Below, in pieces: positions 11,163-40,076 of a DNA stretch of 64,000 bases (position 1 is its first letter; each line of letters begins with the position of its first letter). The DNA is taken from positions 16,217 to 80,216 of IMG/VR virus record IMGVR_UViG_2890388907_000005; one strand, written 5' to 3'. The DNA comes from a virus. Taxonomy: Duplodnaviria > Caudoviricetes. The notes below the pieces were generated by a model. That model did not search any database and was not told the DNA's origin. It saw only the letters and a list, made by a program, of their open reading frames with translations. A program made the translations under genes and the position numbers.

Positions 11163-11177
11163 CGCACTTCCTATGCG
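11163..11177 (-). promoter_or_regulatory. GGA-loop hairpin in holin leader (motif copy 1)
   Basis: Minus strand CGCAT-AGGAA-GTGCG. Confidence 0.7.
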
Positions 11178-11215
11178 TTCACGGGAACAGGTCTACCAGA
11201 TGTCGCCCCGCCCCG

Positions 11216-14200
11216 CTAGTTGTAGATGGCGGGGGCGAGGCCTTCACGCAGGCGTCTATCCAGCTTCTGGTTCAGGCTGACGCCGCCCTCGTTCCGTTCG
11301 GAGGATCGCTGTCTCGCCTGCACCGACTGCCGGATCGTGTCGGAGGTGATCGGGTATTCGGGCCAGCGGGCATTGAAATCGCGGATCGCATCCAGAACCC
11401 CGTCCGGGATCGCGTCGCCCGCCCGGATCGCGTCGCCGGCGCGCCGGTGCAGCCGCTTCCTCTCCTCGATGACCTCGGCCTCCTTGTTCTTGAGACGCGA
11501 GTTGATGTCGTAGCGTTCGGCGATGCGCGCGGGGGTGAAGCCGTTGGCCTGCAGGAGCAAGCCCCAGGGGCTGACATCCTCGACGATCAGGTCGCCGTTC
11601 CGGGTGGTGACGCCTTCGGCGGCATAGCGCCCGGCCCTGATGACGTCGCGGGCGAATTTCGGAACCAGCGCCTCGATGCCCCGCGCATAGTCGCCATCGG
11701 CAACATTCTGGGCGCCGCGGCCCATGCTGAACAGGATCCCGACCGTTGGACCAAGGGCTTCGTTGACATAGTGCTGCACCATGTCCTGCCCCTCAAGATC
11801 GCGGTCCGGGGGGCGGAACCAGAGGTTCGGCATGCCGATCCGCTCGGACAGGGCGATCCCGGTGACCTGCCCGGGAACCCCGTTCAGTGCGGCCCCCATG
11901 GCGAAGTTCCATGCCGCCGCGCCGGGGGTGTCCTTCTCGGCGAGCAGGGCGTCCTGCAGCCATTCCTCCAGGTCATCGGAGTCGCCGGGGAAGAACAGCG
12001 CCAGCAGCCCCATGACCAGGCCATAGCCCCAGGTGCCTGTGATGCCGGCATGCGCCATCATCGACAGGGTGACGCCCACCAGCTGCACCCGGGCTTCCCG
12101 CCTCTCCTCGGCACTGGCTCCATGCAGCGATTGGTGGGCGTCGCGGAACAGCCGGTAGAGCGAGTTGACGGTGAACTGCCTGAACTGAAGGAACAGCTTC
12201 GGCCAATCCCCCTGCATCATCCTCGGACGATCGCTGTTCTGATAGCTGAAATGGATGCGCCAGGTCAGATCTGCGGCGCGGTCGATGGCGAGATCATGGG
12301 GAACACCCTCGCCACGCGCGAGCCGGTAGGCGGCGAGATAGGTGATCTCGCGGTTGAACCTCTCGGCATGATGGAAACCCCAGCCGATCCGGCGCATCCA
12401 TTTCTCACGCCAGGGATTGAACTCCACCCCCGATTCCGCGACCGCGGCGAGATCATGGGCCTGCGTCTTGTCGATGACGCCGCGCCGGTAGCCCTCCGCC
12501 ATCGCCGCCTTTTCCGCGTCGCCGATGTCGGCGTTCTCGACGCTCCATTGATCCTTCCAGGAGGCCCCACGGCCGCGCCCGAAGTCCTTCGCGGCTTGGC
12601 CAAGCGCACCGACGATGTCGCCCAGAGAGGTGCGCGCGAAGGCCGCCCGCATCATCGCGGGACCGATCACCGTGGTCTGCGTGAGGTTGACGATGGCCGC
12701 GGCCGGCGAGACCCCCAGATACCAGACGAAAGCCAGAGAGGATGCGGCAGCCGACCAGCCGGAGCCGGTCGGGTTCATCGTCCACTCCTTCCGCCTGTTC
12801 ATCTCGTTGACCAGCGCGACCATGCGATTGCGGTCCGCGGAGACCGCGGCTTCGTCGAAGGCATCCTCGACGGCATCCTCGAGGTCGATGCCATGCTTGA
12901 GGCGCGCCAGCTGGTGGGCGCCGTGGAACATGTGGTGAGAGAAGGCGCGCAGGGCGTCCCTGTTCCAGCCTTCGCGCCCCTTGCGGTGGATCTTGGAGGT
13001 GCGGATCGACTGGTCGGGCAGCGTTTCCAGCCAGCGTTGCCAGATCATGTCCATGACCTCGGCCGACACATCCGCCCCGGCCAGCATCGTTTCGATGTCG
13101 GCGACGAAGGTCGGATCGACCTGATCGCGCAGCCCCCCGCGCTTCGCCAGAAGGCCATGCTCCACCCGCCCGGGGTGGGAGGCCTCCATTTCCTTGACAT
13201 GGGCGGCCTGCTTCGCCTCGGTCTCGAAGCGCGAGAAGCTGATGACCTTGCCCTCGGTGTCCCGCACCGTCACGAAATAGTCGCCGAAGCGCGCCAGCGG
13301 GAAATACGGGCCCTTGAGCCGGTTGCTCTCGAACTGTCGGCGCAACTCCTTCATCCGTGCCCCGGAGCCCCAGCCGCCCCGCAGCTTCACCTTGTCCAGT
13401 CTCTCCTTCGCCTCGGCCTCGGCCGCGGCCCTCTCCTCGGCTTCAAGGCCCTCGTCGGCGATCCTGCGCATCTCGCGGCGATACTCCTTCTCCGCGCGCT
13501 TCATCGCAATCTTCGTCGCCTTCTCGATGTTCTCGACGATGGCGCGCTCGAAGTCGTTGCCCAGCCGGTCGTATTCCCGCATCACCTCGCCGTAGAGGGC
13601 ACGATGCGCCTCGGGCAGGGCCTGATACATCTCCGAGATGCGGGCGTAGGCGCGGCGGCGGCGGGCGGCATACTCGACCTGATCCTTGGCCCAGAGCGGG
13701 GCGTCATCGCCGTAGCGGCTGATCGCATCCCGCGCCCGGTCCAGCCACGCGCTGTTCCAGGTATCGGGTCCGGTGGGATCGACGCCGGCCTGGGTGGAGC
13801 GATGCATGAGGTCCATCAGCGCCGCATTCGCGGCGGGATCCTTGGCGGCGAGATCATACCATTTCTCCGCGACGCCGGCGGAGCGGGAATGCCACTGGTT
13901 GCGCAGCGCATCCATCTCGTCCTTCACCCGCAGATAGCGGCGCGCCCCGTTCAGATGCTTCCCCATCTCCGCGAACAGTGGTCGCCCCGGCACCAGCGCG
14001 AGAAGCGACAGGTTCTCCGCCGCCATCCGGTCGGTGATGATCGAGGAGACCCAGCGGCTCACCGACTGCCGGTCGATCCGGCCCAGCGTCCCGCGGAACC
14101 GGTCCCGCGACGGGATCAGCCCCGCCCGTAGCTCGCTGGATCCCGAAGCATCGCCCGTATGATTTCCGCCGCCTCGGCGTCGTCCTTCATCAAGGACTCG

Positions 14201-17200
14201 AACTCGGACGGCGTCAGCGGATTTATAATTCGCGAGGTATCGGGCCTCGGACTCGGTGAGGGAGTCGAAGCCGTGGCCTGTGGCGGCGATGAAGTCTGGT
14301 TCGAGGTCGCCATGCCGCTCGCGCAATCTGGAAAGGGTTTCCGGGGACAACGTCAATGTGGCGCTATACTGCTTCCCGGTCAAGGCGACAGCCCCGATGA
14401 CCCTTCCGCCGCCGGCTTCGATATGGGCGGCCAGCGTGGCGAAGGTGCCGCCTTGCGTCAGTGTATCGTCCAGCAGCAGGTAGTCCCGGCCAGGTTCCAC
14501 CGGGCCATTGAAGACGGGTTGCGCGAAGATGCGGTCCAGGCCGCCCAGCGCGGTGCGGTGCGGGGCATTGGTCTGGCCGATCCCCGTCGCGGGCTCAAGG
14601 CCCAGCCGGGCGGCCAGAACCTCGGCCGCCGCCCGCGGGATCTTGTTGCGCCCCGTCGCTTCTTCGGCCACGACCGGGACGATCAGGGGCTTTGCATCGC
14701 CCAGGGCGGCCCTGACCTGCGCGACCAGATCGTCGGTCACCTTGTCGACGGCCAGGCGCGTCGCGGCGGCAAGATCGCCAGCCTTGGCGGCGGCATAGTC
14801 TGGGTGCGAGGAGACCGAGGCGAGTTCGCCGGCGATGATGACCCGGGGGATGGACACCCGCCCGCGCATCTCGGCGCCCATGTCGGCACCCGCGGCGCGC
14901 CGGCTGCCGCCCGGCCCCTGCGGCCCGCGTCCCCCGATCTCGCCCCGCGCGATTTGCTCCATCGTCATCGCCGCGGAGACGAAGCCCCGGCCGCGCAGCA
15001 GGTTTGCCACGGCCTCGACAAAGGCGCGGATGCGCGCCAGCGCCCGGCCCGCCGGTCCGGTGGCCTCACGGCCCTGCGCCCAGAGCCGATAGAGCTCGGC
15101 AACAGCTTCCTCGGCCTGCTTGGCGTCGGTGAGATCGGGATAGCGGGTCCGCACCCAGTCCATGATCTCGGCATCGGCGCGGGCGGCACGTTCCAGCGCC
15201 GCCCATTCTTCCGGCCGGAACAGCCCGAGCGGACGGTTCCAGAGCCGTTCGCTGCGCAGCGCATGGATGATTTCGTGGCGCATGACCCCGCGGGCGTCAT
15301 CCCCGGCGGCAACGTCGATGCGCCCGCCGCCGGCGGTTCTGAAGGTGCCCTTCACCTCGACGCCCGACGCGCCCAGCAGCAGGCGAACCGCGCGGACGGT
15401 CACCTTCTGGTCGAGCCCGTGCGCTTTGAGATCGGCGTTGAGATCGCGGGTGATCCCGGCGAGATCGGCCTCGGCGAGTTCGTCGCCTCCCGGGGTGGCG
15501 ACGACGGGCCGGTCGCGCATCTCCGCGGCGGCTTCCGCCGCCTCATCGCCGCGCCTCATCTTCGACCCTTCGGAGATCTCCGGAGCCTCGAAGGCGCGTT
15601 CGTCATAGAGCGGGACGCCGCTTTCGCTCCTGACCTCCATGTAGGGGACGTCGCCTTGTTCGGTGGACACGAACCAGCCGGTGGCGAGCCAGCGATGGCC
15701 GGTGACCACCCGCTCCTCCCCATCGACATAGATCAGGGTGTCCAGTGGCGCGCCGGCGCGGAGCCAGCCCGGTGCCGGCACCGGGTTCGCCTCCATGTCG
15801 GCGAGGATGGCGTCGCGCTGCGCCTGCTTCTTCGCGAGGTCCCCGGCCTGCTGGAACGGTTCGTCCTGCGCGCGCTCCAGCCGCGCCAGCATCGCCCCGT
15901 TCTCGTCGATCAGCCTTTCGCTGTCGGAAACCGCGTCGGCGATCCGGCGGATGGCCGCCTCGATCGACGGCAGGGTCATCTTGCCGACCCGTCGCTCCGA
16001 CTTGCGGATGATGTCGATCGACACGTCTTCGACGCGATAGGAATAGCTCGGCTTCTCCAGGCGGATGGCGAAGCCGTTCACCTCGACTGGAACGATCTCC
16101 GTGGAGCCTTTGCCCATGCGGGTGGCGGCTTTCGCCAAGAATTCCGCGATGGCGACCTCCGCCGGAGCGCGTTCATCGAACCTCTTGCCGTCTACGGTGG
16201 CGGAGAAGGTGCCTGCCGCCCGGATCCCGGCGACATGGGCGGCATCGTTGCGCAGCGGCGGCAGCGTCTTTTCGAGCGCCTCGGTCTGGGCGGTGATCTG
16301 GCGGATGCGGCGGGTGGCATCGGCGATGCCGGCGACATGGATGCGTTCGCGCGCCTGCAGCCTCTCCACCGCCTTGTTGAGCTTGGAGACCAGCATGAGG
16401 CGGGGGTCACCGGCGGCTTCGGACAAGGTGTCGGAGAGCGAGCCACCATCCATTGCCTCGGCATCGTCGGTGGCGTCGCCCTCGATGACCCGCACCCCCT
16501 CCTTTGCCCTGAGAAAGGCCTTGATAAAGCGTTCCTTGATCGCCAGAACCTGCCAGCGCCGGCCATCAAGCCCCTCGGTCAGATAGCGGTATTCCTCCAC
16601 CGTGTTCCAGGTGTTGCCCTGCCGCTCGCCCCGGCCGTTGCGCTGTTCGAGATCGCCCGGCATCCATGGCGCATCGAGGTGGTGCATCGCCCGCAGGTAT
16701 TTCTGCATGTTGACGCCGACACCCAGGGTCTTGGTCTGGCCGATCACGACGCGGATCTTCAAGGCGTTCATCGCGTCGGCGATGGCCTTCTTCTCCTCGG
16801 CGCTGACCCCGCCGGCGACGATGGCGATTTCCTCGCGCCTAACTCCCTTGGCAACCAGTTTCGCGACAATGTCGTCGGCAAGATTGAACTTCCGCTTCTT
16901 CGTGCGGGTCTTGTTGCCGTCCGCATCGGTGCGCGTGGACACGGTTTCCGAGGAGTAGCCCTCGTCCATGAACAGCACCTGGGTCGCCATCGGCTGGTCC
17001 AGGTAGATCTGCGCGATCCTCCTGACCGCCCGGTTCGCTTTGGACAGCGGGTGGTCCTCGGCGTCGGGCTCCTGCAGGCGCGTATCCATCGAGGCGCGGT
17101 TGGGGACGTTGTTGAAGACGATGGGGGAGTCCGGCCCACCGCCGCGCATGATCTCCCGCCGCTGCTTCCCGTTCGCCTGCTTGAAGGCGCGGGCGTAATA

Positions 17201-20200
17201 GATCACCTCGTCGAGGATGCGACGCTGGTCCCCGCCCATCGGCCCGATGTCGTTGATGATCTTCTTGTAGGGGCGGCCCTGCGGCTTTTCGGTGCGGCCG
17301 TTTTCGAGGAAGTCGCGATCAGCGTCGGTCAGATCCTTGCTGCGCATCGTCTTGCCGTCCGCCGTGGCGCGCGGCTTGAACTCCGGCATGTCGGAGGCGA
17401 AGACGATGTCCATGAACTGGCCGGCGAGCTGGCGCAGTTCGCTGACGTTGATGAAGGCGGCCAGCCGTTCGACATTCTCGAACTCGCCGGTCGAGGTGAG
17501 TTCGACGTCGCTGATCGTGTCCGCGAACGCCTTGAAGAAGCCGTCCCAGGTATCGACCTTGGCCGCCCGCATCACGTCGTCCATGGCGTAGAACATCTGG
17601 TGGTAGATTTCCGCCAGGGTGTTCGTGATCGGGGTGCCGGTGAAGACGTGGACCCCGGTGCCATTGCGCTGCGATTTCACATAGGAGGTGAGGAAGCGCA
17701 GGGCCAACGACTTGTTGGAGGTGCCGAGGTTGAGCCCCTTGACCTGCATGCGCGTGGCCAGCGGCGGCTTCTTGAACTCGTGGGATTCGTCGACAAGGAT
17801 CATGTCGACGCCCAGTTTCTCGAAGCTGATGGCACCCTCGCGGCTCGCGCGCTGCGCCTGCTTCTCGATCTGGTTCAGCAGGTTCTTCCGGGCCTTGACC
17901 ATCTCCTTCGCGGTGACGCCCAGCCGCATCTTCTTGATCTTCTCGGGATCGTCCATGTCCTCGACGCTGAGGCTGAACCCGTCATCGGCCGCGGCGGCGA
18001 TGGCTTCACGCTCGTAGGCCGCGATTTCCTCCTCGGCCATCACCATCAGCGTGTCGTGGGTCAGCGCCAGCCGATCCAGCAGCGAGTGGGGGATCACGAT
18101 CAGATCCCAGTCGTCGGTTGCGATGCGCGCGAGTTCGGTGTCGATCGTCGCGGGGGAGAGGTTGTTGATGTAGAGGATCTTCGCGCCGGGATAGGTGTCC
18201 TGCGCTTCCGCGGCGACGGCGGCGGAGTTGGCGTTGTGAGCGATCAGCAGCGGCTTCCTCGCCAGCCCGAACCGCCGGCTTTCAACCGCGATCCCGGTCA
18301 TCGTGATCGTCTTGCCGGTGCCCACCTCATGGCCATAGATGCCGCGCTGGTTCAGGATGCCCCGCCAGATCGCGTTGGCCTGATGCTGGCGCAGATTGAA
18401 CGGCTCATCCCCTCGCGTCAGGGCCATGCCCGGGAATTCGAGGAAGCTGCCGTCGATCTGCGGCGTCGCCGTGTTGTTCATCGCCTCGTTGTAGGCGCGC
18501 TCCGCCTCGACGCGGCGCTCGGGCTCGGACCAGAGCCATGCCCCGAATTTCTGACGGAGATCCGCGGCCTTCTGGTTCGCGGTCTCCGTTGCCCTGGTAT
18601 CCTTGTAGGTGCCGTCCTGGTCCTCATAGGTGACGGTGATGGTCTGGGTGTTCAGCGTCGCCTCGAAGAACCGGGCCAGCGAAAGCCCGGTGCCTCGCCG
18701 ACCCGGGAGAGGCGCGCCGGTGATGTCGGAGGCGCCGGGCATATGTGCGACGCGGTCGGAGAATTCGACGCGCCATCCGGTCATCGCCCGGGTCAGCTTC
18801 ACATCGTTCTCGTCGGGGTTGGCCAGCCCGAGGGTTTCGATGATGAAGGCGCGGTTGATCCCGGCATCGACCCAGTCGGCGCCGAACCGCGCCTCGATCT
18901 GGAAATAGGGCACATCCGGCGGCTGCACCGCTTCGAGCGCGGCGACAGAAGCTGCCATGTCCTCGCCGCCGTCCAGCGCCTCGCGCGCCGCCGCCAGCTT
19001 CACCCTGACGTTGCCGGCGAGATAGCGGTCGCTGGTCTCGTAGCCGCCGCCCGGCGTCCGGTAGATCGCCTTGCTGTCGAGCAGATCGGCGATGACCGTC
19101 TCCGCCGGCTGCTTCGCCAGCTCCGCGACGCGCTCGATGTCGAGAATGGCACTCTCGTTCCGCGCGATCACGAAGGCTTCGCGGATCGACGGGTTGTCCA
19201 GCTTCTGTGCAGCCCGGACCACCGCCTTGGTCATGATCGCGGCGGGCGTTCCATCGCCGTTTTCGAGTGCTGCGACGAGGCCTGCGTTCGGATCGCGCAG
19301 CTTCTTCAGGACGGATAGGGCGAAGCTGTCGCCGATCGGACCATGCGCCTTGACGAAGCCGTCATAGGCCAGCTTCAGCGTCTTGCGTTTCGCCTCCGCA
19401 TCGGCGGCGCCGGCCCGGTCGGCTTCCATCACGGCGTCGGCGGCGCGCCGCACCTCGATCAGTCGCCCGATCTCGGCCATCCGCTTCGCGGTCTCCGTCG
19501 CGCTCTTGGTGGCGATCTTGGCGACATCCTCGAGCCGGGCCATGTTGTCGCCCTGGACCTGATAGAGATTGCCGTCATCGCCGCGGGTGATGGAGAGGAT
19601 GCGATCCCGGGTGGTCGTGGCGACGAAGCGGGGTTCCTTTCCGCGCCGCGCCGGCTGATAGGCATCGGCCGGCAGCGCCGATGCGATGGCCTTGAGACGC
19701 GCGGCGAGATCCGCCGGCCGGTTCACGATCATGCCGGCCTTGCCATAGGTGGTGCCGTGGCCGGTGGTCAGTTCGCCCAGCACATGCGAGGGGTTGTCCA
19801 GGAAATACTGGTTGACGTGGATCTCCTGCCCCGCGGGCGAGGTCCACGGCACCGATTGGACCCACCTCTCGCCTTCGGCGCTCGCCTTCGGTTCCGCGCG
19901 CTTGCGCAGGATGATGATGTCGGTGACGACGCGGGTGCCCGCATATTTCTCGAACGCGCCGCTCGGCAGCCGGTAGGCGGCGACCAGCTCCGCATTCTTG
20001 GCGAGGTGGTTGCGGATCACCCGGTTCTTCTGGCCGTCCATGGAGAAGGCCGAGGTGATGCCGACGACAAGCCCGCCCGCGCGCACCTGATCCAGCGCCT
20101 TGAGGAAGAAATAGTCGTGCAGGCTCGGGGTCAGCCGGTCGTAGCGGCGATCCGGCACCTTGATGTTGGCGAAGGGCCAGTTGCCGATGACCAGATCGTA

Positions 20201-23200
20201 GAAGCCATCGGCGACGCGGCTCTTTTCATAGCCCATGACGCGGATGTTGGCCCGCGGATAGAGCAGCTTCGCGATGCCGCCGGTGGTCTTCTCCAACTCG
20301 ATCCCGGTGAGTTGCGAGTTCTGTTCCAGATCCCGCGGCATCATGCCGAAGAAGTTGCCGACACCCATGGCGGGTTCGAGGACGCGGCCGCCCTTGAAGC
20401 CCATCGCGCGGACCGCATCCCAGATCGCCTCGACGGTCGGCGGGTCGGTGTAGTGGGCGTTGATGATCGACTCTTGCGCGCTGGCCCAGGCATCCTTGCC
20501 CAGATGCTCGCGCAGCCAGGCGTCTTCCTCCTTCCAGCCCTCCTTGGGGCGCGGATAGGCCCATGAGCCTTGAAACAGTTCCTGGCCGAAGCTGCCCCAG
20601 CCGATGAAGCCGGCCATGGCATCCATTTCCTCGGGGCTCGGCTCGCGGCCGGCATCGGAGACCGCCTCGAATACCTCCATCGCCCGGCGGTTCTTGGCGA
20701 ACCGCGCTTTCGGGCCGCCCGCGAACAGCGAATCCGGGTCGGTGATGTGATAGTTCAGGCGCCCGGGGGCAGAGGGCTGGTCGCTTCCGGGTCGAACATC
20801 GCCCAGTCCTTCACCGCTTCCTGCCGCGCGTCGGACGGGTTCATCCCGCTTTTCAGGTAGTCCCGCTCCGCGTCCAGCATCCTTTCGACGAGAACGTGCG
20901 CGAGGGCGGTCACCGCGCCCCACTCCTTCATCGCCTGATGGAGCCCCGGGTTCTGCGCCTCCCAGGTCTCGATCATCCACTTCTCCAGTGGCGTCCCCGG
21001 CCCGATGTTGTGCGGATGGTCCATCAGGGTCCGGCTCTCCACCTTCGCCCACTTCGCCAGTGCCTGCGCCGCTGCCTTCTCCATCGGGGGTCGTTCCAGC
21101 TTGAGGTTGCGTCGCAACGGTATCAGGTTCCGCCGGCTCGGGCGAGACGGGGAATTCCCCGGCCGGCGTGTCCAGCGCCTCAAGGTTCTGGATCGCGGCG
21201 CGCACCGCCGCGGTGTCATCCATGCCGTCGATGGAGATCTCGTTGTCCTCCATCATGTCCCGCGCACCATTATACCAGGACCGCAGGTAGGGGCGCAGCT
21301 TGGTGGGGGTGGTGTCGAGATCGGCGGCGACGGCCCGGGCGAAGTCGGCGAAGCGCCGGGCGCCCGCCTCGATGTGGAACACGGCGAGTTCGGCACCGAT
21401 GGCGAGGATTTCGGGGTCGATGCCCGAATTGATCTGGCTGCCCAGCTTGGCCTTCAGCCGCTCGCGCAACTCGGCGGCGCGATCCGCGGATACCAGCTTG
21501 TTCGAGGCGCCATAGGCCGGCGCCGGTTCGGCTGCGGCCGGCGCGGCCGGCGCGGGCGCGGGCTGATCGGGCGCGGCGGCAGCCGGCACACCGCGCTGCG
21601 CGGCACCCTCGGCATAGCCTGCGCGCCAGTCATCGGCGATGGGATCGCCTTCCAGCCATGCCGGCGGCTCGCGCATCGCACCGGCACGGCCAGCTTTCCG
21701 GCCGGCCTCGATCGCGTCGCGGCGCTTCTGTTCACGCCGGTCATCCAGCACCGGCGGCGCGGCCGGCGCGGGCGCGGGTGCGGCAGGCTTCGGACGGGCC
21801 GGCGCGGGCGCGGGCCGGGCAGGTTTGCCGGCCTCCGCAGCGATGCGGTCCTCCTCGACATAGGCGGCTTGCAACACGGCGTCGGCATGCTTGCGGGCGA
21901 AGATGAACCCGCCTTCCTTCTCGTCCCATTTCAGGCTGACGCCCGGCACCTGCGGCGGCCGATCCTTCGGGAGACCGCGCAGCACCGCGGCCTTGGCCCG
22001 CACGTTCTCCACCTCGACACCCTCATAGGGATAGGTCGGGGCTTCGCTCGTGGCCGCGGCCTTGCTCGGGCCGCCGCCCGCCAGCCAGGTCTTGAAGCCG
22101 GGCACATCCATGGCGGTGATGCCGCCCAGCCGCCGGCGCCCCTTCCCATCGGAGAACCCGCCCAGGTAGGCGATCTCCGCTTCGGACGCGGAGGCGAAGC
22201 CCAGCATCACCTTGTGTTCGTCGAAGGCGCCGGTTTCGGCATCCTTCTGGTCGATGATCCAGACCTTATCGCTGGCCTCGTCCGGTCCCATGTAGAAGTC
22301 GACGTGGTCGCCATCGGCGCCAGTCGTGCCGCGGATGTAGCCGTAGTCCGCAGGCATGGTGACCTCCCATGCCGCACCATCCGCCCCGACACCGCTGCGC
22401 GTCCCGCCCTTCGGGTTTTCGATGGAGAGGTCGAACCCTTTCCAGCGGGCATGCCCCTTGCGGTAGTTGCCGGCCTCCTTCTGCGCCTCGGTCGGGGCTG
22501 GATCCGCGGCCTTTGCGGCCTCGGCGACCGCGGACTCACCGCCCCCGGTCAGTGGACCTGCAGGCTCGCCGGTGCCAGCTGCGTCAACCAGACCATCTTG
22601 AGGATCGGCGCCACCGGGTCGGTTCCCTGGATCGTCCGCTCCGATCGCAGCGCCTTGCGCGCCAGCCGCGCTTCCTCCGGGGTTATCATCCCCGCGGCGA
22701 GCAGCGCCTTGATCGACTGCCGCGCCGTCATCCACATTGGCAGATCGAGCATTTCCTTCCCCCATATCGACCGGTGCGACCCGATCCATTTCCCGCATCG
22801 CCCCGCGCGTCGCAGACGCGATTGCATCCCGGTCCAGCCCCTCTGTGTCGATCCGCCTGTCCTGATCGGATGCACCGCGGCCGGCCCGCACGATGACGCG
22901 GCCCGGGCGGATCAGAACCTCCCGGCCATCCAACAGCATGTCGTCGGAACTCTTGCCCCCCTCGGCGATGGCGAGGAAGCGACCCCATTCCTTCCGGCGC
23001 TTCTCCCGCGACGCCGTCTCGGCCTCGGAAACCTCGCGCCCCCCCAGCATGTCGGGCTGCATCCGCTGCTCGGGCGGAGTCGTGATCGGGGCGACCGGGT
23101 TGCGGGCCGCCTTGGCCGGTGCCGCGGGCGGCGCGGGCATGTCCTCCGGAGGCGGCACCTTCGCCGCGAGCCGGGCGCGCAGATCCAGCATGGTCTTCGA

Positions 23201-25119: not shown

Positions 25120-25142
25120 GGCTGACACATCCTATGGCAGCC
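25120..25142 (-). promoter_or_regulatory. GGA-loop hairpin in giant-gene leader (motif copy 2)
   Basis: Minus strand GGCTGCCAT-AGGAT-GTGTCAGCC, downstream of TTGCCG-17-TATTCA. Confidence 0.7.
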
Positions 25143-25185
25143 CGTTTCCCCATGAATACCTGATCCGGTGGGGACGCGGCAACAA

Positions 25186-26892: not shown

Positions 26893-26893
26893 G

Positions 26894-27859: not shown

Positions 27860-28818
27860 GCCGCCACCCCCATGGGTTTCGGCTTCGTCTTGCCCGCCTT
27901 CTTCTGGGTGAGGGCATCGACCTTCTTGGCCAGCTGCTGGACCGCGCCCATGGTGACGCCCATGGCGGTGATCGGGTCGATGGTGGTGCCGTCGCCGACG
28001 CCGGTGGCTGCGGCGAAGTCCTCGGCATAGGGGCCGACATGCTCGCCCTCGTCGGCGACGCCCGCCTTGTAGCGCCATTTCTCCACCGGCATCTTCTCGA
28101 CCGCGGCCAGGGCATCGAAGGGGCGTTTATCCTCCTTCACCTTTTCCGAGGACATGAAGGCGCCCGCCATCATCCCCAGCGACCCGAACATCTGCATCTG
28201 GCTCTGCGCCGCCATCTGGGAGGACTGCAGCTCCTGCTGATACTGGGTGTTCAGCAGGCTTCCGGCCTGGTTGTAGCCCTGCATCGCGCCGTTGGCGCCG
28301 GCGCTGACCGCGCCATTGGAGAGCCCCATGGAGGTGGCCGGGTTGACGGCCAGACCCGCCCCCATGTTGATCGCGTTCGCCATTTTGGCGTCGGCTTCGG
28401 CTTCGACGGTGCGGCGGGACATATTCGCGGCGCCCGCCGAGGCAAGCGCGGTGTCGGTGGCGCCCTTCTGGGTCTCCGCGGCGTAGCGCCCGGAGGTCGG
28501 ATCGACCCCCATCGCCATCATCGACCGGCTGCGCTGCCCGGCGGCCAACGCGCTCTGGTTCTGCACATCGGCGACGGCCTGATCGGCGACGCTCTGCTTG
28601 CGTTCCGCCGAGTCCCAGCCTTGCGCCTCGGCGATGTATTGGTCCTGCAGGGGCTGGAAAACGGTCTGCTCGCGCTCCCGATCCTCAAGGGCCCAGCTGT
28701 TGGTGATCTCGGCCTGCGACTTCATGAAGTCGAGGAATTCGGCGCCGGTTCTCGCCGAGATCATCGCGGCCTGACCGATCTGCGGATCTGCCTCGGGTGC
28801 GTCGTAGCTGTTGCCCAT
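27856..28818 (-). CDS. DNA pilot/ejection protein with C-terminal peptidase S74-like chaperone domain
   Basis: Gln/Ala/Met-rich body; SSEKVKED...WRYK...HVGPYAEDF. Confidence 0.75.
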   Translation of the reverse strand: MGNSYDAPEADPQIGQAAMISARTGAEFLDFMKSQAEITNSWALEDREREQTVFQPLQDQYIAEAQGWDSAERKQSVADQAVADVQNQSALAAGQRSRSMMAMGVDPTSGRYAAETQKGATDTALASAGAANMSRRTVEAEADAKMANAINMGAGLAVNPATSMGLSNGAVSAGANGAMQGYNQAGSLLNTQYQQELQSSQMAAQSQMQMFGSLGMMAGAFMSSEKVKEDKRPFDALAAVEKMPVEKWRYKAGVADEGEHVGPYAEDFAAATGVGDGTTIDPITAMGVTMGAVQQLAKKVDALTQKKAGKTKPKPMGVAA

Positions 28819-29267
28819 CAGTGGCCTCCTTCCAGCCAGGTGCATTCTTCGCGCCTCATCCCGAACAGGATGGCATCCTCGCCGGTGAAATATCCGCCGC
28901 GGAGGCGCGCCTCGAACTGAAATCCGGCGCGCAGCGCCGCGATCTGCGCGGGATGGTTGCTCACCGCGGTCAGCGTCGTCATCCGGCGGCACCCGCGATG
29001 CAGGAACACATAGGCGCCCACCAGCTTGAGGATGCCGCGATCCGCCCAGCGCCGCGATCCGTTCGAGGCGGTATCGAGGGTGCAGGCGCCGTTCATGAAG
29101 CAGCTGGCCGTGATCACCGCGACGATCTGGCCGTCGTCGTCCACGACTCCCATCGGGACCGCGTCGGGCGGCAGCCGGCCGGGGGCGAGCCCAAGGCGTT
29201 CCTCCGCCCAGGCGCGCAGCGGCGCGACGAGATCGGCTCCCATGATGAGGTCGAGCGGCATGGACAT
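28818..29267 (-). CDS. Phage GNAT acetyltransferase-like protein
   Basis: YVFLHRGCRRMT...N...GFQFEARLR...DAILFGMRREEC. Start is 29267 or 29261, after GGAG. Confidence 0.8.
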   Translation of the reverse strand: MSMPLDLIMGADLVAPLRAWAEERLGLAPGRLPPDAVPMGVVDDDGQIVAVITASCFMNGACTLDTASNGSRRWADRGILKLVGAYVFLHRGCRRMTTLTAVSNHPAQIAALRAGFQFEARLRGGYFTGEDAILFGMRREECTWLEGGH

Positions 29268-29284: not shown

Positions 29285-29303
29285 GCGGCACGTCCTATCC
29301 CGC
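29285..29303 (-). promoter_or_regulatory. GGA motif/hairpin in GNAT-ejection operon leader (motif copy 3)
   Basis: Minus strand GCGGGAT-AGGAC-GTGCCGC, downstream of TAGCGA-17-TATTCT; stem has a mismatch. Confidence 0.65.
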
Positions 29304-29335
29304 GGCGGCAGAATAGCAGGTCGGCGCCGCGCTCG

Positions 29336-29710: not shown

Positions 29711-30288
29711 CCCAACGCTCCTGTGATCTGGGAAATTGCGGTGTCCAGCCCGGCGGTGGCTGCGTCGATCTCCGCGCGGGTCGCCGCCGCCGCGATGGCG
29801 GCTGCAGCGGCGAAGCAGGCGGCCTCGACCGGCCCGCCCATCTGCCGCCATAGCGCATTCAGGTTGAGAACGACTTGAGCCACCTCCGCCAGCGTCGGTG
29901 CCGTGCCCCCGGTTTCGATGGGGCCAACCTCCGAGACCAGCATCGGATAGTCGGCGGGATCGGGGGTTCCGCTCGCGGAGGCGGCGACGAAGGCCTGCGC
30001 CTCCATGAGCTTGACCATGTAGTAGAGGCTCTGGAACTTCATGTCGGTCAGGGTGGTCAGTCGCGTCTCCTCGCGCTTGGCGGCGACACGATCCAGCGCC
30101 ATCCGCCGCATCGCCGGGGTGGCCGCGGTTTCAGGGGCGAGCGCGCCGGCGACGACGCGCCAGCGGAACGGGTCGGACAGATCGGTCTCGTCGGGCACCT
30201 CGATATGATCGCCCGGCGGCGGGGTGACGTGGGGGGCGAGCCGCATGACACCCGTGATCGCGCCATTGGCGTCGTAGTAGATCAGCAT
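29707..30288 (-). CDS. Putative tail fibre assembly/chaperone protein
   Basis: Follows the fibre gene; YMVKLMEAQAF...DYPMLVSEVG pattern. Confidence 0.7.
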   Translation of the reverse strand: MLIYYDANGAITGVMRLAPHVTPPPGDHIEVPDETDLSDPFRWRVVAGALAPETAATPAMRRMALDRVAAKREETRLTTLTDMKFQSLYYMVKLMEAQAFVAASASGTPDPADYPMLVSEVGPIETGGTAPTLAEVAQVVLNLNALWRQMGGPVEAACFAAAAAIAAAATRAEIDAATAGLDTAISQITGALG

Positions 30289-34604: not shown

Positions 34605-34606
34605 GG

Positions 34607-36151
34607 CTACCTCAGCAGCTCCTCGATCGTCGCGGCGAAGGAGATGCCGCTGATTGTGGCGTCACCTTCAACCTCGACCTCCCAGCGGGTGGCCTTGCCG
34701 GCCGGCAGCCGCCCGGGGGTGTCGATCGCGTCGCTGCTGTGGTGCAGGGTGCCGTCCGCATAGAAGCGGGTGACGGTGGCGCCGTCGCGTTCGGTGTCGA
34801 TCTTGAAGGCGCCGAAACCCTCGCGATGGACGTGGTGGTAGAGGCGGCTGCGCCAGAGATAGGGACGCTTCGCACCCGCCTCCCACAACCGGACCTCGGC
34901 GCCCTGCAGCATGAAGACCGCGCCGGTCTGGATTTCGAGATGCAGATCCTCGGCGCTGATGTCGGCGCGCTCGTAGAAGGGCTGCGTTCCGGTCGTGTCG
35001 ATCGCACCGATCCGGCGCGCCGCCCCATCGAGGTGCGAGAACAGGTATCGGCCGCGATAGGAGGTGGCGATGAAGGTGGACGGTTCCAGAGCCGTCCATT
35101 GGTCCGCGGTGAACAGTTCCCGCGAGATGACCTGCGCGCCGGAAAGCGAGATCGAGACGATGCCCTCCGGCGATGGATAGAGCGCCGAATAGCCCATATC
35201 CACGATTCCGCGGCGCGCGACGCAGGGCAGGTTCGACTCCACCTTCTCCTGCATCATCGACTCGGGATGGGTGCCCTGGATGATGTAGGGGGTGCCGGTG
35301 GTCAGCACGACAAGCGCGGAACCCAGCGCGACCAGCCCGACGACAGGATAGGCGACGGTGAGGACGTATTTCGATGGCCAGGCATGCGGGATGTAGGGCT
35401 CGCAGAACAGCACCTCCTTCCCGTCGAAGGCCGCCATCATGCCGTTCGGCATCGGGATGATCCCGCGCATCCCGGCCGGCGGCGCGTCATAGTCGGTGCT
35501 AGGCACCGGCTCTTGGATCGGCTCGTCCAGCGGCAGATGGGTGTGGGACAGATCGAAGGCGGAGAACTCGGCGACGAAATGCAGCGCGGTCTCCCCGCTG
35601 CTGCCGGTCTGGGAGCGATAGAGGCGGATCAGGGTGATCCCGCGCCCGGCGGGCGGGGTGACGAAGCCCTGCAGGAAGACCTGCAGAGGCGAGTGCCATA
35701 GCACCGGCTCCGTCAGAGGCGACGGGGGCGACTCCTCGCCCCACTGGGTGACATAGGTGTAGGCGAACAGCGTCTCCTCGGCGATGGCTACATCCACGGT
35801 GCCGAGGATTTCGACCGTGGGCGCGTCGGTCGGGGGCAGCAGGGCCAGCGGGTAGGTCTGGCCGTCGACCCGCATCTTCGGGGCGCCGTCGCCGGTGATG
35901 TAGAGCCGCGAGGTGGCCACGGGCCCGGGCGTGGCATCGACATCGGCGTCGAAGCCTAGCCAGGCGCTGTCGTGACGGATGATCCGCTGCACCGGCCCGG
36001 GAAACTGGTGGACGGTGACCGGCTCGCGCAACGCCCGGATCGCGCCGTCTTCCAGCACGATGTCACGCGCGGCTTGCGCGTAGTTCTCGGGCAGAAGCCT
36101 TGGGTGGAGGCGCGGCATCTCGCCTTTGAAGTTGGCGATCTGGACGCGCAT
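34607..36151 (-). CDS. Tail tubular/nozzle (stabilisation) protein
   Basis: FKGEMPRLHPRLLP; YTYVTQWGEESPPS; FCEPYIPHAWP; TGATG coupling. Confidence 0.8.
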   Translation of the reverse strand: MRVQIANFKGEMPRLHPRLLPENYAQAARDIVLEDGAIRALREPVTVHQFPGPVQRIIRHDSAWLGFDADVDATPGPVATSRLYITGDGAPKMRVDGQTYPLALLPPTDAPTVEILGTVDVAIAEETLFAYTYVTQWGEESPPSPLTEPVLWHSPLQVFLQGFVTPPAGRGITLIRLYRSQTGSSGETALHFVAEFSAFDLSHTHLPLDEPIQEPVPSTDYDAPPAGMRGIIPMPNGMMAAFDGKEVLFCEPYIPHAWPSKYVLTVAYPVVGLVALGSALVVLTTGTPYIIQGTHPESMMQEKVESNLPCVARRGIVDMGYSALYPSPEGIVSISLSGAQVISRELFTADQWTALEPSTFIATSYRGRYLFSHLDGAARRIGAIDTTGTQPFYERADISAEDLHLEIQTGAVFMLQGAEVRLWEAGAKRPYLWRSRLYHHVHREGFGAFKIDTERDGATVTRFYADGTLHHSSDAIDTPGRLPAGKATRWEVEVEGDATISGISFAATIEELLR

Positions 36152-36813: not shown

Positions 36814-36822
36814 CTGCGCACC

Positions 36823-37512: not shown

Positions 37513-37521
37513 CAGGTTCTC

Positions 37522-37635
37522 CTATCGGCGCTTGCCGAACAGGCGGCGCCAGAACGACGGGCGCCGCGGGGTGCGATCGTGCTTCCAGTAGTCGCCGGGG
37601 GCGCCGGGCGTCTTCCGGCGCCCCCGGCGCGCCAT
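37522..37635 (-). CDS. 37-aa basic peptide ending in an amphipathic FWRRLFG helix (absent from ORF track)
   Basis: MARRGRRKTPGAPGDYWKHDRTPRRPSFWRRLFGKRR; TGATG coupling upstream; its TAG is part of the next gene's AGGAG RBS. Confidence 0.7.
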   Translation of the reverse strand: MARRGRRKTPGAPGDYWKHDRTPRRPSFWRRLFGKRR

Positions 37636-38123
37636 CAGGCGCGCTCCGCCCGCGTCGCCTCGATCTGTGCGATCAGCGTCTCGGCCTTGGCCCGGGCGTT
37701 CGGCTCACGGCCGACCTCCTTGGCGAAGAGATCGCGCAGCTGGTCCAGCGACATGTCTACCAGCGCCAGCGGGGTTTCCGTCGCGGGTGCGGGCGCGGGC
37801 GTGGGCGCGGGCGTGGGCTCGATCACGGTGGCGGTGGCCGCGGGTTCGACGCCGCCGGGTGCCGGGACCGGAGCGGGCGACACCTGCGGGGCCGGCGCGG
37901 GCGAGACCGGGGGGACGCCGATCGAGGTGGCGGCGGTGGTGCCGGCGAGGCGGAAGCCCTCGGCGACCCGCAGGAACTGCTGGGCGTGGTCGGCCGAGGC
38001 GATGGCGCAGACATGCCGGCCGGTGCCGTCATCGGCGAAATGGTAGGCGGTGCCGTCGCCGACGCGATGATGGCTGCCACCCGGGCGCTTCTGCAGCGCC
38101 TCGATGATGAGAATGTTGGACAT
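37635..38123 (-). CDS. Hypothetical virion-associated protein with Pro/Ala linker
   Basis: AGGGGAG RBS; small helical C-terminal domain. Confidence 0.75.
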   Translation of the reverse strand: MSNILIIEALQKRPGGSHHRVGDGTAYHFADDGTGRHVCAIASADHAQQFLRVAEGFRLAGTTAATSIGVPPVSPAPAPQVSPAPVPAPGGVEPAATATVIEPTPAPTPAPAPATETPLALVDMSLDQLRDLFAKEVGREPNARAKAETLIAQIEATRAERA

Positions 38124-38204
38124 CAGGTCTCCCCTTTCGGTTTCGCAATTGCCCGCCCCGGCGGTGGGCCGGAGCGGGCGCTTTCAACCGTCCCTCGGAC
38201 CGCG

Positions 38205-38648
38205 TCAGGAGACGACGCGGATGCGGCAGTGCAGCTTCTTGGTGGCGCCCGCGACGATGTCGGCCGACGTCTTCAGCCCGACCGAAACCGGGGTGTCGCC
38301 GTTCTGCGCCAGCGCGGCCAGCGCGGTCAGCGCGGTGGTCGCCGGGGCGCCGGCGGCACCGGCGTTGACCAGTTCGGAACCCGAGGTGCGCGCGGCGTCC
38401 AGCGAGCCGGGGCTGCCGGACATCAGGCCGATGGTCAGGTTGACGGCGCCCAGGTTCTCGGATGCGCAGTCGAAGCCGACGATCCGGCCGTAGGGGAAGA
38501 TCGGGAACAGGTCGAGGATGTCGGCGGCGGCCACGGTCTCGGCAAACACATGCGTGAACATGTATTCGATCACTTCGCCCTTGCGGTGCGGGTTCGGCAC
38601 GGGGGTGCGCGAGTTCCCCTTGAAATACGCGCTCTGCTTGATCGCCAT
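38205..38648 (-). CDS. Putative capsid decoration/minor capsid protein
   Basis: Follows the major capsid gene; beta-rich, 147 aa. Confidence 0.7.
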   Translation of the reverse strand: MAIKQSAYFKGNSRTPVPNPHRKGEVIEYMFTHVFAETVAAADILDLFPIFPYGRIVGFDCASENLGAVNLTIGLMSGSPGSLDAARTSGSELVNAGAAGAPATTALTALAALAQNGDTPVSVGLKTSADIVAGATKKLHCRIRVVS

Positions 38649-38681
38649 GTCTCTTACCTTTGTGCGATGCGGAAAGGGTCA

Positions 38682-38699
38682 GGGGGCCGTGCGGCCCCC
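38682..38699 (-). terminator. GC hairpin after the major capsid gene
   Basis: GGGGGCC-GTGC-GGCCCCC. Confidence 0.5.
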
Positions 38700-38706
38700 C
38701 GATGGA

Positions 38707-39810
38707 TCAGACGATCGCGTTGGGATCGCGGCAGTAGGTATCCAGCGCGCAGCAGCCGAAGTCGCGGCCGTTGAACCGGGTCTTCTTCATGCCCATGATC
38801 ACGCCGCAGTAGATTTCGACCTGGTTGTCGGCATCCACCAGCTTCTCCACCCACGTCATCCGTGCGCCGTTGCCGGCGCTGCCGTAGGCGACGACACCGG
38901 CCTGCCGGCCCAGCAGCAGCCCGCGCGCCGCGGGCAGGTTGCCGCCGACGCCATAGTCGCCGAAGCGGCGCACCGATTCATGCTCATGAAGGACGAGGTT
39001 CGAGATCATGCCCAGACCGCCCTTGCAGATCGGGGACTTCCGACCCTCCGAGGTCGCCAGCGACTGCTGGATCTTCGACCAGGAGAGATCGCCGGTCTCC
39101 ACCCGCATGTCGTAGGCCTGGAACTTCGTCATCAGCACGATGAAGTGCTTGGACCCCTCGACCGTCACCGGGCTCATGCGGATGACGTCGGGGTTGGTCG
39201 CGTTCATCATCGTCGGCTTCACCGCGACGCGCTCAAGGAAAGCCACGTTCATCTTGTCGGCGGCGGTGAGCGTCGCCTTCGAGGTGGCGGCACCGGCGTA
39301 GAGCAGGTGGTCGGCATCCGGCGCGTGGATCGGGTTGCCGGCGAAGGGCTTGTTGAAGACGGCGTCCTGGTTGATCGCGCTGAAGTTGGCGTCGCCCGAG
39401 AGGTAGACGAAATAGCCCTCGTCGATCCACTGCGCCACATATTCCGAGGTGCGGTCCCGGGCGATGCGGCGGAGGTCGTGCAGGAGGCGCTTGCGGCTCA
39501 TGCGGCCGGCGGCGGAGGCGCCTTTCCGGGCCTGGTCGATCTTCACCTCGTCGGTGTAGAAGGTCAGCGCCTCGGCCGAACCCTCGACGCGGTCATCGCC
39601 CAGCGTCATGCCGCCGCGCAGACGCATCGACAGGTCGAACTGGACGGTGTCGCCCGCCTCGTCTTCCAGATCGACCTTGCGCTCGATGATGTTGTTCTCG
39701 CCGGTCCCGACGAAGCGCGACCAGTAGCTCTGCTTTTCGGTGTCGGTGGCCAGCGAGGTGGCCCAGCGACGAACCGCTTTGGGGTCATTGACGCCGATCA
39801 CGGTCTGCAT
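38707..39810 (-). CDS. Major capsid protein, N4-gp56 family
   Basis: DLEDEAGDTVQFDLSMRLRG...VEGSAEAL...IDQAR; GMKKTRFNGRDFG. Confidence 0.92.
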   Translation of the reverse strand: MQTVIGVNDPKAVRRWATSLATDTEKQSYWSRFVGTGENNIIERKVDLEDEAGDTVQFDLSMRLRGGMTLGDDRVEGSAEALTFYTDEVKIDQARKGASAAGRMSRKRLLHDLRRIARDRTSEYVAQWIDEGYFVYLSGDANFSAINQDAVFNKPFAGNPIHAPDADHLLYAGAATSKATLTAADKMNVAFLERVAVKPTMMNATNPDVIRMSPVTVEGSKHFIVLMTKFQAYDMRVETGDLSWSKIQQSLATSEGRKSPICKGGLGMISNLVLHEHESVRRFGDYGVGGNLPAARGLLLGRQAGVVAYGSAGNGARMTWVEKLVDADNQVEIYCGVIMGMKKTRFNGRDFGCCALDTYCRDPNAIV

Positions 39811-39841
39811 CGGACTCTCCTTCGGTCAATACGGTGTTGAC

Positions 39842-39862
39842 CCAGGCACGTCCTATGCTTGG
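39842..39862 (-). promoter_or_regulatory. GGA-loop hairpin in major capsid leader (motif copy 4)
   Basis: Minus strand CCAAGCAT-AGGAC-GTGCCTGG, downstream of TTGCTC-18-TAGGAA. Confidence 0.7.
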
Positions 39863-39905
39863 CGTTGGGCATTCCTACCACATCTTGGGGTATCGGAGCA
39901 ACGGT

Positions 39906-40076
39906 CTAGGGATCGCAGCGCGAGACCCGGGTAATGGGCATCTCGCGCGGCGCTTCGATGATGATGGTGGCGGCGCGCTGTCCGATCTGAACGAACTTCA
40001 GGACGATGTCATCGCCGATGCGGATTTCCGGCGTGGAGCCGTCATTGGTGGGGACGACTCGGGTTTTCCACGACAT
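39906..40076 (-). CDS. csrA: CsrA/RsmA-like RNA-binding protein (56 aa)
   Basis: EIRIGDDIVLKFVQIGQRAATIIIEAPREMPITR aligns by eye to CsrA [34 protein letters not shown]; AAGGA RBS. Confidence 0.75.
   Translation of the reverse strand: MSWKTRVVPTNDGSTPEIRIGDDIVLKFVQIGQRAATIIIEAPREMPITRVSRCDP

Follow-up and report, generated by a model that had tools for sequence, protein, structure and literature searches.

Within a 64,000-nucleotide stretch of viral DNA (Caudoviricetes; IMG/VR record IMGVR_UViG_2890388907_000005, positions 16,217 to 80,216; hereafter the window), which holds a prophage matching the Bcep22-like podophages in gene order and content, a gene for a CsrA-like protein of 56 amino acids lies directly upstream of the leader of the major capsid protein gene. 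The short motif ATAGGANGTG recurs on the minus strand in this capsid leader and in the leaders of three further late genes. In the present analysis, we describe these leaders as members of a real and apparently undescribed leader RNA family, and discuss whether the CsrA-like protein may act upon them. The genes and leader hairpins concerned are the following (window coordinates; ORF, open reading frame):

39906..40076, minus strand: CsrA-like gene, 56 amino acids, closing the terminase-portal operon and immediately preceding the capsid leader
39842..39862, minus strand: capsid-leader hairpin CCAAGCAU-AGGAC-GUGCCUGG, motif at 39847-39856, conserved and covarying in relatives
38707..39810, minus strand: major capsid protein gene (PF13252, E=7e-50; phrog_334)
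29285..29303, minus strand: GNAT-operon leader hairpin, motif at 29289-29298, G-G mismatch at the third pair
28818..29267, minus strand: GNAT (acyl-CoA N-acyltransferase), first gene after its leader (phrog_4470, E=9e-25), orthologue of Bcep22 gp69
25120..25142, minus strand: giant-gene leader hairpin GGCUGCCAU-AGGAU-GUGUCAGCC, motif at 25126-25135
11216..25093, minus strand: ORF for a virion protein of 4625 amino acids (the giant gene), DarB-like in Bcep22, syntenic with gp75 ("DarB-like antirestriction protein")
11163..11177, minus strand: lysis-cassette leader hairpin CGCAU-AGGAA-GUGCG, motif at 11165-11174, orthologous copies in G002 and G003
10733..11125, minus strand: membrane protein of 130 amino acids with 3-4 hydrophobic stretches, putative holin, upstream of the amidase endolysin; no family match in Pfam or phrog scans
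10267-10731, minus strand: amidase endolysin (phrog_822, E=1e-49)

A recurrent motif in four late-gene leaders

Six exact matches to ATAGGANGTG are present in the window, where shuffled sequences lead one to expect 0.07 and none of 100 shuffles reached six. Genome-wide (4,051,972 bp, 69.5% GC), 14 matches were counted on both strands, 6 of the 14 within the 64-kb window. The four minus-strand copies (11165-11174, 25126-25135, 29289-29298 and 39847-39856) are without exception located in intergenic leaders, and the end of the motif is separated from the start codon by 39 nt for the 130-amino-acid membrane protein, 32 nt for the 4625-amino-acid gene, 21 or 27 nt for the GNAT gene (which has two candidate ATGs) and 36 nt for the capsid gene. 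The motif is embedded in a stem that differs between the copies, namely GGCTGCCAT/GTGTCAGCC with one C-U mismatch and CCAAGCAT/GTGCCTGG with one A-C mismatch for the giant-gene and capsid copies, CGCAT/GTGCG for the lysis copy and a stem with a G-G mismatch for the GNAT copy. Moreover, a −10-like hexamer is found 11-17 nt upstream of each motif, preceded by TGN in three of the four leaders and by AGG in the fourth. These coordinates, stems, the GNAT mismatch, the hexamers and the spacing to the start codon (21-39 nt) agree with a first-pass annotation of the window made from sequence alone, in which two plus-strand matches had gone unmentioned.

The latter read ATAGGAGGTG and are located antisense within the giant gene (17681-17690) and antisense within the gene of an internal virion protein (35057-35066). 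At 17681, the match is predicted to form a hairpin of −11.5 kcal/mol, followed by a GTG-initiated antisense ORF of 109 amino acids. The other genomic matches are mostly ATAGGAGGTG as well and are found in coding-looking sequence; together with the plus-strand matches of the window, they may be due to chance plus codon usage.

The late region has about 8 true intergenic gaps measuring 50 nt or more; 4 of these contain the motif, and the remaining gaps are occupied by GC-rich, terminator-like hairpins without it. Long GC-rich hairpins lacking U tracts are seen, for instance, in the minus-strand gaps 38649-38706, 38124-38204 and 37513-37634, the sequence GGGGGCC-GCAC-GGCCCCC after the capsid gene providing an example. 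These gap hairpins may serve as terminators or processing sites delimiting transcription units.

The window encodes a member of the CsrA family

When compared to the Pfam CsrA profile (PF02599), the 56-residue product scores 33.5 bits for a cut-off of 27, the match being confined to positions 11-44 of the 53 in the profile. When 33 phage homologues were combined into a profile of their own, it could be aligned to RsmE (2jpp, residues 1-47) with no gaps at E=1.6e-12. In addition, an AlphaFold2 monomer model (predicted local distance difference test score of 87) retrieves exclusively CsrA, RsmA or RsmE chains among the Foldseek matches to the Protein Data Bank down to rank 15, with template modelling scores of 0.43-0.64 and weak E-values (≥0.05), as expected for a model of 56 residues. 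The window protein is a member of the CsrA family, and the position initially assigned to its gene, directly upstream of the capsid leader, is correct. Across the 4.05-Mb host genome, no other CsrA-family match above the cut-off was observed.

The leader hairpin is a conserved RNA element

No isolated phage has a capsid protein more than about 54% identical to that of the window (of 66 records matching at E≤1e-60, none reaches 60% identity), and its closer relatives, at 84%, 73% and 72% identity, are encoded by prophages or contigs. In IMG/VR, 527 relatives were identified, of which 80 were fetched. Throughout this group, whose hosts include alpha-, beta- and gamma-proteobacteria, the capsid leader (62 distinct sequences) contains a similarly built hairpin, consisting of a GCRY/GYGC top stem, an A-N-G-A(-N) loop and a variable, covarying outer stem. 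Two pairs beneath the variable ones hardly change (G-C in 54 and C-G in 53 of the 62), the next pair is G-U, A-U or G-C, the closing pair is C-G or U-G, and the loop consists of A-N-G-A followed by 0, 1 or 2 bases.

A fixed-register alignment was made of 50 pentaloop leaders, among them all four from the window and non-capsid ones from nine further genomes. Standard pairs are formed in 80.3% of its cells compared to 67.0±1.6% after shuffling, and the covariation score amounts to 0.431 compared to 0.245, the observed value being reached by 0 of 500 shuffles in either case, while sliding the register cuts the pairing to 19-55%. Each of the four outer pairs displays 13-19 double-sided changes. 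At the two inner variable pairs (G-U 25, A-U 19, G-C 6; C-G 29, U-G 21), one-sided changes only were observed, without a single unpaired cell. Since this wobble pairing works on the sense strand only, it points to an RNA and argues against a DNA operator or a −10 hexamer. Hence, the AGGAN-loop hairpins that had been predicted from the window sequence gain support from covariation and from conservation at orthologous leaders, and the DNA element which the first-pass annotation had named as the outcome contradicting its proposal is disfavored by a wobble restricted to one strand.

At the level of individual genomes, the 84%-identical relative L003 carries GCGCAGGAC where the window reads GCAUAGGAC and keeps the upstream TGGTAA element. 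In G002 and G003, the capsid gene, the giant gene and the gene following the latter each have the element in their orthologous leader, the giant-gene hairpin of both genomes differing from that of the window by a U-A to U-G exchange at one pair and a change at the mismatch position. Three copies were found in G005 and two on the partial contig G001, and second copies are present in more distant phages (L041, L043, L061, L078, L085, L095 and L101), the copy number per genome being 2-4. A four-column signature, formed by both variable stem pairs together with the second base of the loop, is uniform within genomes, being identical in 20 of 21 within-genome pairs versus 59 of 279 between-genome pairs. 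This uniformity of loop type suggests the presence of a trans-acting reader.

Outside this signature alignment, L007 combines AUGA in its capsid leader (about position 9950) with AGGA at a downstream gene (17352), the only exception to within-genome uniformity that was seen.

In Rfam, only the tRNA reaches the gathering score in the window, and the capsid leader yields a chance match of 9.3 bits. A covariance model built from the 62 capsid-leader hairpins with their flanks assigned 28.1 bits to the capsid copy and 8.5 bits to the holin copy, the other two window copies being unlisted, and found no more than 11 matches with E≤0.01 when run on 1.0 Mb of loci. As the model proved too weak for searching, regular expressions and the fixed-register alignment were used instead. 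Its second-best window match (GCGCAGGAUGUGC, 31184-31221, plus strand, 17.4 bits) is antisense within a gene of 1438 amino acids and probably represents chance.

The hairpin competes with a pairing to the start region

The loop and one arm of the hairpin are complementary either to the spacer between the Shine-Dalgarno (SD) sequence and the AUG or to the AUG itself, and this partner changes along with the hairpin. In the capsid leader of the window, the partner is the following:

39808..39822, minus strand: capsid start region (AAGGAG, spacer AGUCCG, AUG), whose GUCCgAUGC complements the GCAUaGGAC of the hairpin and is paired in the minimum free energy (MFE) structure

For 61 distinct capsid leaders, the duplex between a hairpin and its own start region reaches −15.45 kcal/mol, compared to −11.38 kcal/mol for cross combinations, and 0 of 10,000 permutations were as low. 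In a positional control, the hairpin window (−15.5 kcal/mol) was compared to upstream windows (−7 to −8 kcal/mol), and it beats those placed 12-48 nt upstream in 54-58 of the 61 leaders. The two partners exchange together over large distances within the group: GGAUGUGC pairs with GCACAUCC in Bcep22, GGAGUGC with GCACUCC in L053, L066, L067, L070 and L099, CAUAGGAUG with CAUCCUAUG in L039 and L045, AUGAUGUG with CACAUCAU in L101, and CAUGAGUGC with GCACUCAUG in PBC5.

Similar pairings are predicted for other leaders of the window. In the MFE structure of the GNAT leader, GGACGUG pairs with CAUGUCC just before the second AUG, and in the giant-gene leader GCCAUAG complements CUAUGGC at the start codon; in the giant-gene leaders of the window and of G003, the AUG pairs with a second GCCAUAG located just 3′ of the hairpin. 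Among 15 alpha-clade leaders that were folded, the MFE structure pairs the motif with the spacer or the AUG in 11, and the local hairpin is kept in the lysis leader of the window and in the second copy of G001. RNAalifold, applied to nine full capsid leaders, returned the local hairpin only, as MAFFT did not hold the start regions in register.

Taken together, a complementarity that covaries suggests that the leader is a two-state translational switch. The first-pass annotation had missed the complementarity to the start codon, which makes a conformational switch likelier than simple occlusion of the SD sequence by a CsrA dimer and possibly favors activation over repression. Overall, we consider it very likely that the hairpin, its conservation and its alternative pairing represent a genuine RNA element.

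Promoter-like sequences upstream of the hairpins

The −10-like sequences of the four window leaders are located as follows:

39871..39880, minus strand: extended −10-like TGGTAGGAAT, capsid leader, putative promoter (TGnTA pattern; alignment with Bcep22)
29310-29318, minus strand: −10-like TGCTATTCT, GNAT leader
25152-25160, minus strand: −10-like GGTATTCAT, giant-gene leader
11190-11198, minus strand: −10-like TGGTAGACC, lysis leader

A strict scan for E. coli-type sigma-70 promoters did not detect a promoter in any of the four window leaders, so that their assignment rests on the TGnTA pattern and on homology with relatives. TGnTA is present 11-20 nt upstream of the hairpin in 11 of the 15 alpha-clade leaders, and sigma-70-like promoters about 10 nt upstream of the hairpin are recognized in L048 (TTGCAA-17-GATAAT), L069 (TTTGCA-18-GATAAT) and Bcep22 (TTGTAA-17-TAGAAT), which places the hairpin at the 5′ end of the mRNA in these beta- and gamma-proteobacterial relatives. 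The −10-like element of the window capsid leader aligns with the Bcep22 promoter, the offset between hexamer and GGA being 24 nt in both, and transcription in the window would likewise be expected to start just upstream of the hairpin.

No terminator-like site was detected in the four window leaders (0 in a terminator scan), which lack a U tract, and 6 of the 62 relatives have at least 5 T in the 8 nt following the hairpin and were flagged as terminator-like. Such a U-rich run is seen in some gamma-proteobacterial relatives (L048:9949-9971, L069:8203-8225 and the L102 capsid leader, GGUUUUUUCU), where the hairpin may act as a promoter-proximal attenuator. In the window, the leader of the terminase small subunit gene (46075-46148, minus strand) contains ATCTGGTGGGGG, resembling the ATCTGGTAGACC of the lysis leader, with no hairpin motif after it, an arrangement that may fit control being confined to the later units.

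The CsrA-like gene is retained across relatives

In 77 of 91 sources, a CsrA-like ORF lies no more than 1.5 kb upstream of the capsid gene; of the 14 others, 5 offer fewer than 260 nt of sequence on that side. L051 carries the gene at another position, and in G007 it neighbors the portal gene. Furthermore, five complete phage genomes in which the gene is not adjacent to that of the capsid were searched from end to end, and all five contain it, among them PBC5 (AF448724.1; csrA-like gene at 34185-34328 on the minus strand, capsid gene at 3990-5090 on the plus strand) and Atu_ph08 (MF403009.1; 12356-12469 and 39240-40370), where the two genes are unlinked. In Bcep22, the counterpart is the "CsrA-like regulator" gp54, directly upstream of capsid gp55. 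Being kept even where rearrangement has parted it from the capsid gene, the csrA-like gene behaves as a core gene and not as a moron.

The sole related lineage without a CsrA-like ORF in the fetched locus (L009/L010, up to about 10 kb on each side of the capsid gene) is also devoid of a recognizable hairpin. Our search for csrA-less relatives keeping the hairpin found none, the apparent cases being fragments or genomes in which the gene is located elsewhere. The first-pass annotation had counted conservation of the motif in relatives lacking csrA against its proposal; no relative was demonstrably without the gene. LKA5 and 933W, taken as outgroups, possess no csrA and no capsid leader of its own kind set apart from other transcripts.

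The CsrA-like protein as a candidate ligand

Based on these observations, we tentatively favor a model which, taken as a whole and including contact with the CsrA-like protein, we rate somewhat below an even chance. The late units (capsid; GNAT/ejection; giant DarB-like; holin-endolysin) would each start at a sigma-70-type or extended −10 promoter, and within about the first 10-30 nt each late mRNA could form the hairpin, with an AGGAN loop in the window phage. The leader could then adopt either the local hairpin, leaving the start site free, or the long-range helix, the predicted minimum-energy form in most leaders, in which the start site would be sequestered. The phage's CsrA-like protein would bind the hairpin loop, and in the window phage perhaps the SD GGA of three of the four leaders too, thereby setting the balance of the two forms and coordinating how the late operons are translated. 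We prefer activation, in which the protein would hold the hairpin form, and repression by bridging the loop and SD GGAs would be the alternative. What is shown here is the element with its RNA nature and conservation, the alternative pairing and the family of the protein; where transcription begins, whether the protein contacts the RNA and whether it activates or represses are inferred.

Several features are consistent with such a contact. GGA is essential for canonical CsrA binding, and it is present in the loop of 38 of the 62 distinct capsid-leader hairpins and of all four window copies. A second GGA at or near the SD sequence allows bridging by a CsrA dimer; an SD GGA occurs in three of the four window leaders (AAGGAG, CGGAGC and GAGGAGC). 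The leaders of L072 and L080 read CAUGGAUG and CAUGGACG, which match the CsrA consensus CANGGANG. In CsrA, the RNA-binding residues lie in strand 1 and strand 5, above all Arg44, and the window protein has R at the position aligned with it (PITR). Within the family, R or K occupies this position in 29 of 55 sequences, 23 of 35 from phages with a GGA loop versus 6 of 20 from phages with a non-GGA loop.

A number of observations weigh against this assignment. Shared ancestry confounds the link between position 44 and loop type; moreover, position 44 is not R/K in 12 of the 35 GGA-loop phages, including the near relatives L004 and L005, and is M, A, I or L in most close relatives with an identical CAUAGGA (L004, L005, L037, L039, L043 and L044). 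In the window protein itself, strand 1 is diverged and followed by a 7-residue insertion, and Pfam aligns only positions 11-44. On the RNA side, 24 of the 62 capsid leaders have AUGA, AAGA or ACGA loops in phages that keep csrA, some of them without any GGA in the leader (e.g. L048, L050 and L102), the SD sequence of the giant-gene leader (GUGAGGUU) has no GGA, and the window motif CAUAGGANG is one nucleotide longer than the CANGGANG consensus. The conserved CAU and AGGA can also be read as the complement of the AUG and of a UCCU spacer. Finally, for 10 non-capsid leaders, own and cross duplexes (−11.70 and −10.79 kcal/mol) do not differ significantly, 1372 of 10,000 permutations being as low, and the long-range pairing is thus statistically established for capsid leaders only.

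The regulon proposed in the first-pass annotation, a phage-encoded CsrA acting on GGA-loop leaders, is upheld in part: its GGA loops, the RNA nature of the hairpins, the retention of csrA and the lack of another host CsrA are all in agreement with it, whereas the GGA, which 24 of the 62 loops lack, and Arg44, which is often lost, are not conserved. A more far-reaching version would be a lock-and-key system, in which the late leaders close their own start codons and the CsrA-like protein opens them by holding the hairpin, acting as a core late regulator rather than a host-aimed moron, with protein-loop pairs (AGGA, AUGA, AAGA) that would have co-evolved orthogonally between lineages and would amount to a natural set of CsrA-family proteins differing in RNA specificity; we regard this version as rather doubtful.

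Sorted by host, the loops lack GGA in 5 of 5 enterobacterial and P. aeruginosa phages and contain it in 4 of 4 Burkholderia and Ralstonia phages. Against a clean host pattern, the loop of Skulduggery, which infects P. fluorescens, is UGGAU, and AUGA or AUGAC loops are seen in three phages of alphaproteobacteria. BcepMigl has a Bcep22-type loop, and Burkholderia cepacia and cenocepacia are described as being without CsrA in PMC7366521. Given that the pattern is not clean, we do not claim that the loop type follows the presence of CsrA in the host.

Alternative explanations

If no protein were involved, the leader could be a mere folding switch, in which the nascent 5′ hairpin acts as a kinetic trap that leaves the start open until later refolding closes it, resulting in timed translation, and the CsrA-like protein would act elsewhere, for example on host mRNAs. 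Both conformations are backed by covariation, the closed form is the MFE structure in 11 of 15 leaders, the GGA is dispensable in 24 of 62 loops, Arg44 is often lost, and the conserved CAU and AGGA are explicable as complements of the start region, all of which such a switch accommodates. However, it gives no reason for a loop and top-stem type shared per genome (20 of 21 within versus 59 of 279 between genomes), and leaves unexplained the constancy of A-N-G-A and GCRY/GYGC across alpha-, beta- and gamma-proteobacterial phages as well as the occurrence of a csrA-like gene in every complete genome searched whole. We consider it unlikely, albeit the strongest of the alternatives. The within-genome uniformity of the loop points to some trans-acting factor, which might be other than CsrA, such as a host protein or RNase (ribosomal protein S1, RNase E protection of the 5′ end), another phage protein such as a late antiterminator, or a small RNA, in which case the csrA neighborhood would be coincidental. 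The U-rich run after the hairpin in 6 of 62 relatives would suit an antitermination factor, and several phage genes of the window are without a family match. Yet the four window leaders have no U tract and 0 terminator-like sites, and the CsrA-like family is the only RNA-binding family recognized among the ORFs scanned, which were a subset of all. Two phages of the same host genus, the Pseudomonas phages Itty13 (AAGAC) and Skulduggery (UGGAU), speak against a specificity determined purely by the host. We judge a different trans-acting factor to be a slightly weaker candidate than the protein-independent switch.

The recurrence of the motif could also be sought at the DNA level or in coincidence. 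As a −10 hexamer, TAGGAN resembles the TAGAAT of the Bcep22 late leaders, and the GNAT leaders read GATAGAATGGTGCG 33 nt before the ATG in Bcep22 and GATAGGACGTGCCG 32 nt before the ATG in the window; as the operator of a dimeric regulator, the motif core offers an imperfect inverted repeat. This repeat is asymmetric in an RNA-compatible way only (46 G-U/U-G, 0 unpaired cells), the outer stem covaries, and the complementarity to the start region makes sense at the RNA level only. In L003, GCGCAGGAC loses the T of the putative −10, and the upstream TGGTAA is kept. The motif is GCGCAGGAC in L003, L041 and Bcep22, and no promoter-like site was called at the motif in the window leaders, which speaks against a −10 function. 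A DNA element is accordingly very improbable. Homology of the motif with the Bcep22 TAGAAT −10 was considered and rejected, since the motif's T and A vary among relatives and its wobble pairing is RNA-like. Chance recurrence of a word with nine specified bases in a GC-rich genome could invoke the eight further genome matches outside the window and the two on the window plus strand inside genes (ten beyond the four). It is opposed by the expectation of 0.07 per window, with 0 of 100 shuffles reaching 6, by the intergenic position and same arrangement of all four minus-strand copies, and by the presence of the element in orthologous leaders of G002, G003, G005 and G001, making it negligible. Even jointly, a DNA element or chance would be highly unlikely.

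Prophage context

The prophage has an integrase beside a tRNA gene, followed by RecT, RusA, a methylase, phosphoadenosine phosphosulfate (PAPS) reductase, TerS, TerL, a P22-type portal and a 311-amino-acid protein, and continues with the CsrA-like gene, capsid, virion proteins, GNAT, the giant gene, the putative holin and the amidase. The tyrosine-type integrase gene (phrog_1, 61733-63079) lies directly beside the tRNA gene (63171-63257, minus strand, 57.9 bits), and this side of the prophage is probably the attachment end. PAPS reductase (49374-50342, minus strand) and GNAT (28818-29267, minus strand), two other "morons" reported for Lessieviruses, are both present, the former being placed in the early/replication region here and beside the GNAT gene in Bcep22.

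Comparison with known systems

Homologues of CsrA are common in phage genomes, and to our knowledge none has been assigned an established function on the phage side. The locus offers a concrete target set in the form of a short RNA element with 2-4 copies per genome and an alternative pairing to the start codon. Should the protein bind it, a phage CsrA would for the first time have a defined regulon, which would show CsrA acting upon virus assembly and the timing of lysis and would provide natural specificity variants. Should it not bind, the element would stand as a structured late-gene leader family absent from Rfam that controls capsid translation.

The same gene, described as CsrA-like and located upstream of the capsid gene, is recorded in the available text of papers on the Bcep22-like phages JC1 (PMC9144972) and CSP3 (PMC10269572) and of two surveys (PMC7366521, PMC8450108), where csrA is called a moron or a candidate for host manipulation (CRISPR-Cas, metabolism). 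A knock-down in PTXU04 reduced plaque size according to PMC11879866, which notes that the part played by the gene in the phage life cycle had previously gone untested. In the portions available of these five papers on phage CsrA homologues (PMC9144972, PMC10269572, PMC7366521, PMC8450108 and PMC11879866), neither a leader hairpin nor phage targets are mentioned, and the words "promoter", "hairpin" and "stem-loop" have 0 occurrences in the JC1 paper (PMC9144972).

The leaders described here share several features with the CsrA/RsmE system as seen for RsmE-hcnA (2jpp), namely a small protein of the family, a GGA in the loop of a short 5′-leader hairpin and, in three of the four window leaders, a second GGA at the SD sequence 20-35 nt downstream; the relatives L072 and L080 fit CANGGANG exactly. 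Repression of this type is known from glgC and hag. In contrast to these cases, the protein is phage-encoded and resides in a host without CsrA, its presumed targets are the phage's own late mRNAs, and no sponge RNA is evident here. Moreover, the window pentaloop is set on a U-G closing pair (CAUAGGANG), UGA, AGA or CGA replaces GGA in 24 of 62 relatives, and Arg44 is often missing.

CsrA also acts as an activator or protector, as it blocks an SD-sequestering hairpin in ymdA and, by binding at the extreme 5′ end, blocks RNase E on flhDC. These cases and the present leaders would have in common a binding site right at the mRNA 5′ end and a competing structure that hides the start, whereas here the sequestering partner would be the binding site itself (loop and arm), repeated on several operons. 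Among phage systems, Com of phage Mu binds a leader stem-loop and opens the closed start of mom, and is thus akin to the model favored here, with a small phage protein, a leader stem-loop and a late gene whose start is opened; Com, however, is a zinc-finger protein with one target, compared to a CsrA fold with 3-4 targets conserved across a phage group. In the leader of the MS2 maturation gene, a 5′ element is complementary to the start, and a competing 5′ hairpin acts as a kinetic trap. The resemblance lies in the complementary 5′ element and in a competing hairpin delaying closure; MS2 is an RNA phage in which a single gene is controlled without a protein ligand, whereas the loop sequence is conserved and uniform per genome in the family described here.

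Overall, by comparison with these systems, the mode of action suggested for the leaders resembles that of known leader switches (Mu Com-mom, the MS2 maturation gene and CsrA-ymdA), and what appears to be new is the combination of a multi-copy, phage-wide leader family with a phage-borne CsrA-like gene.

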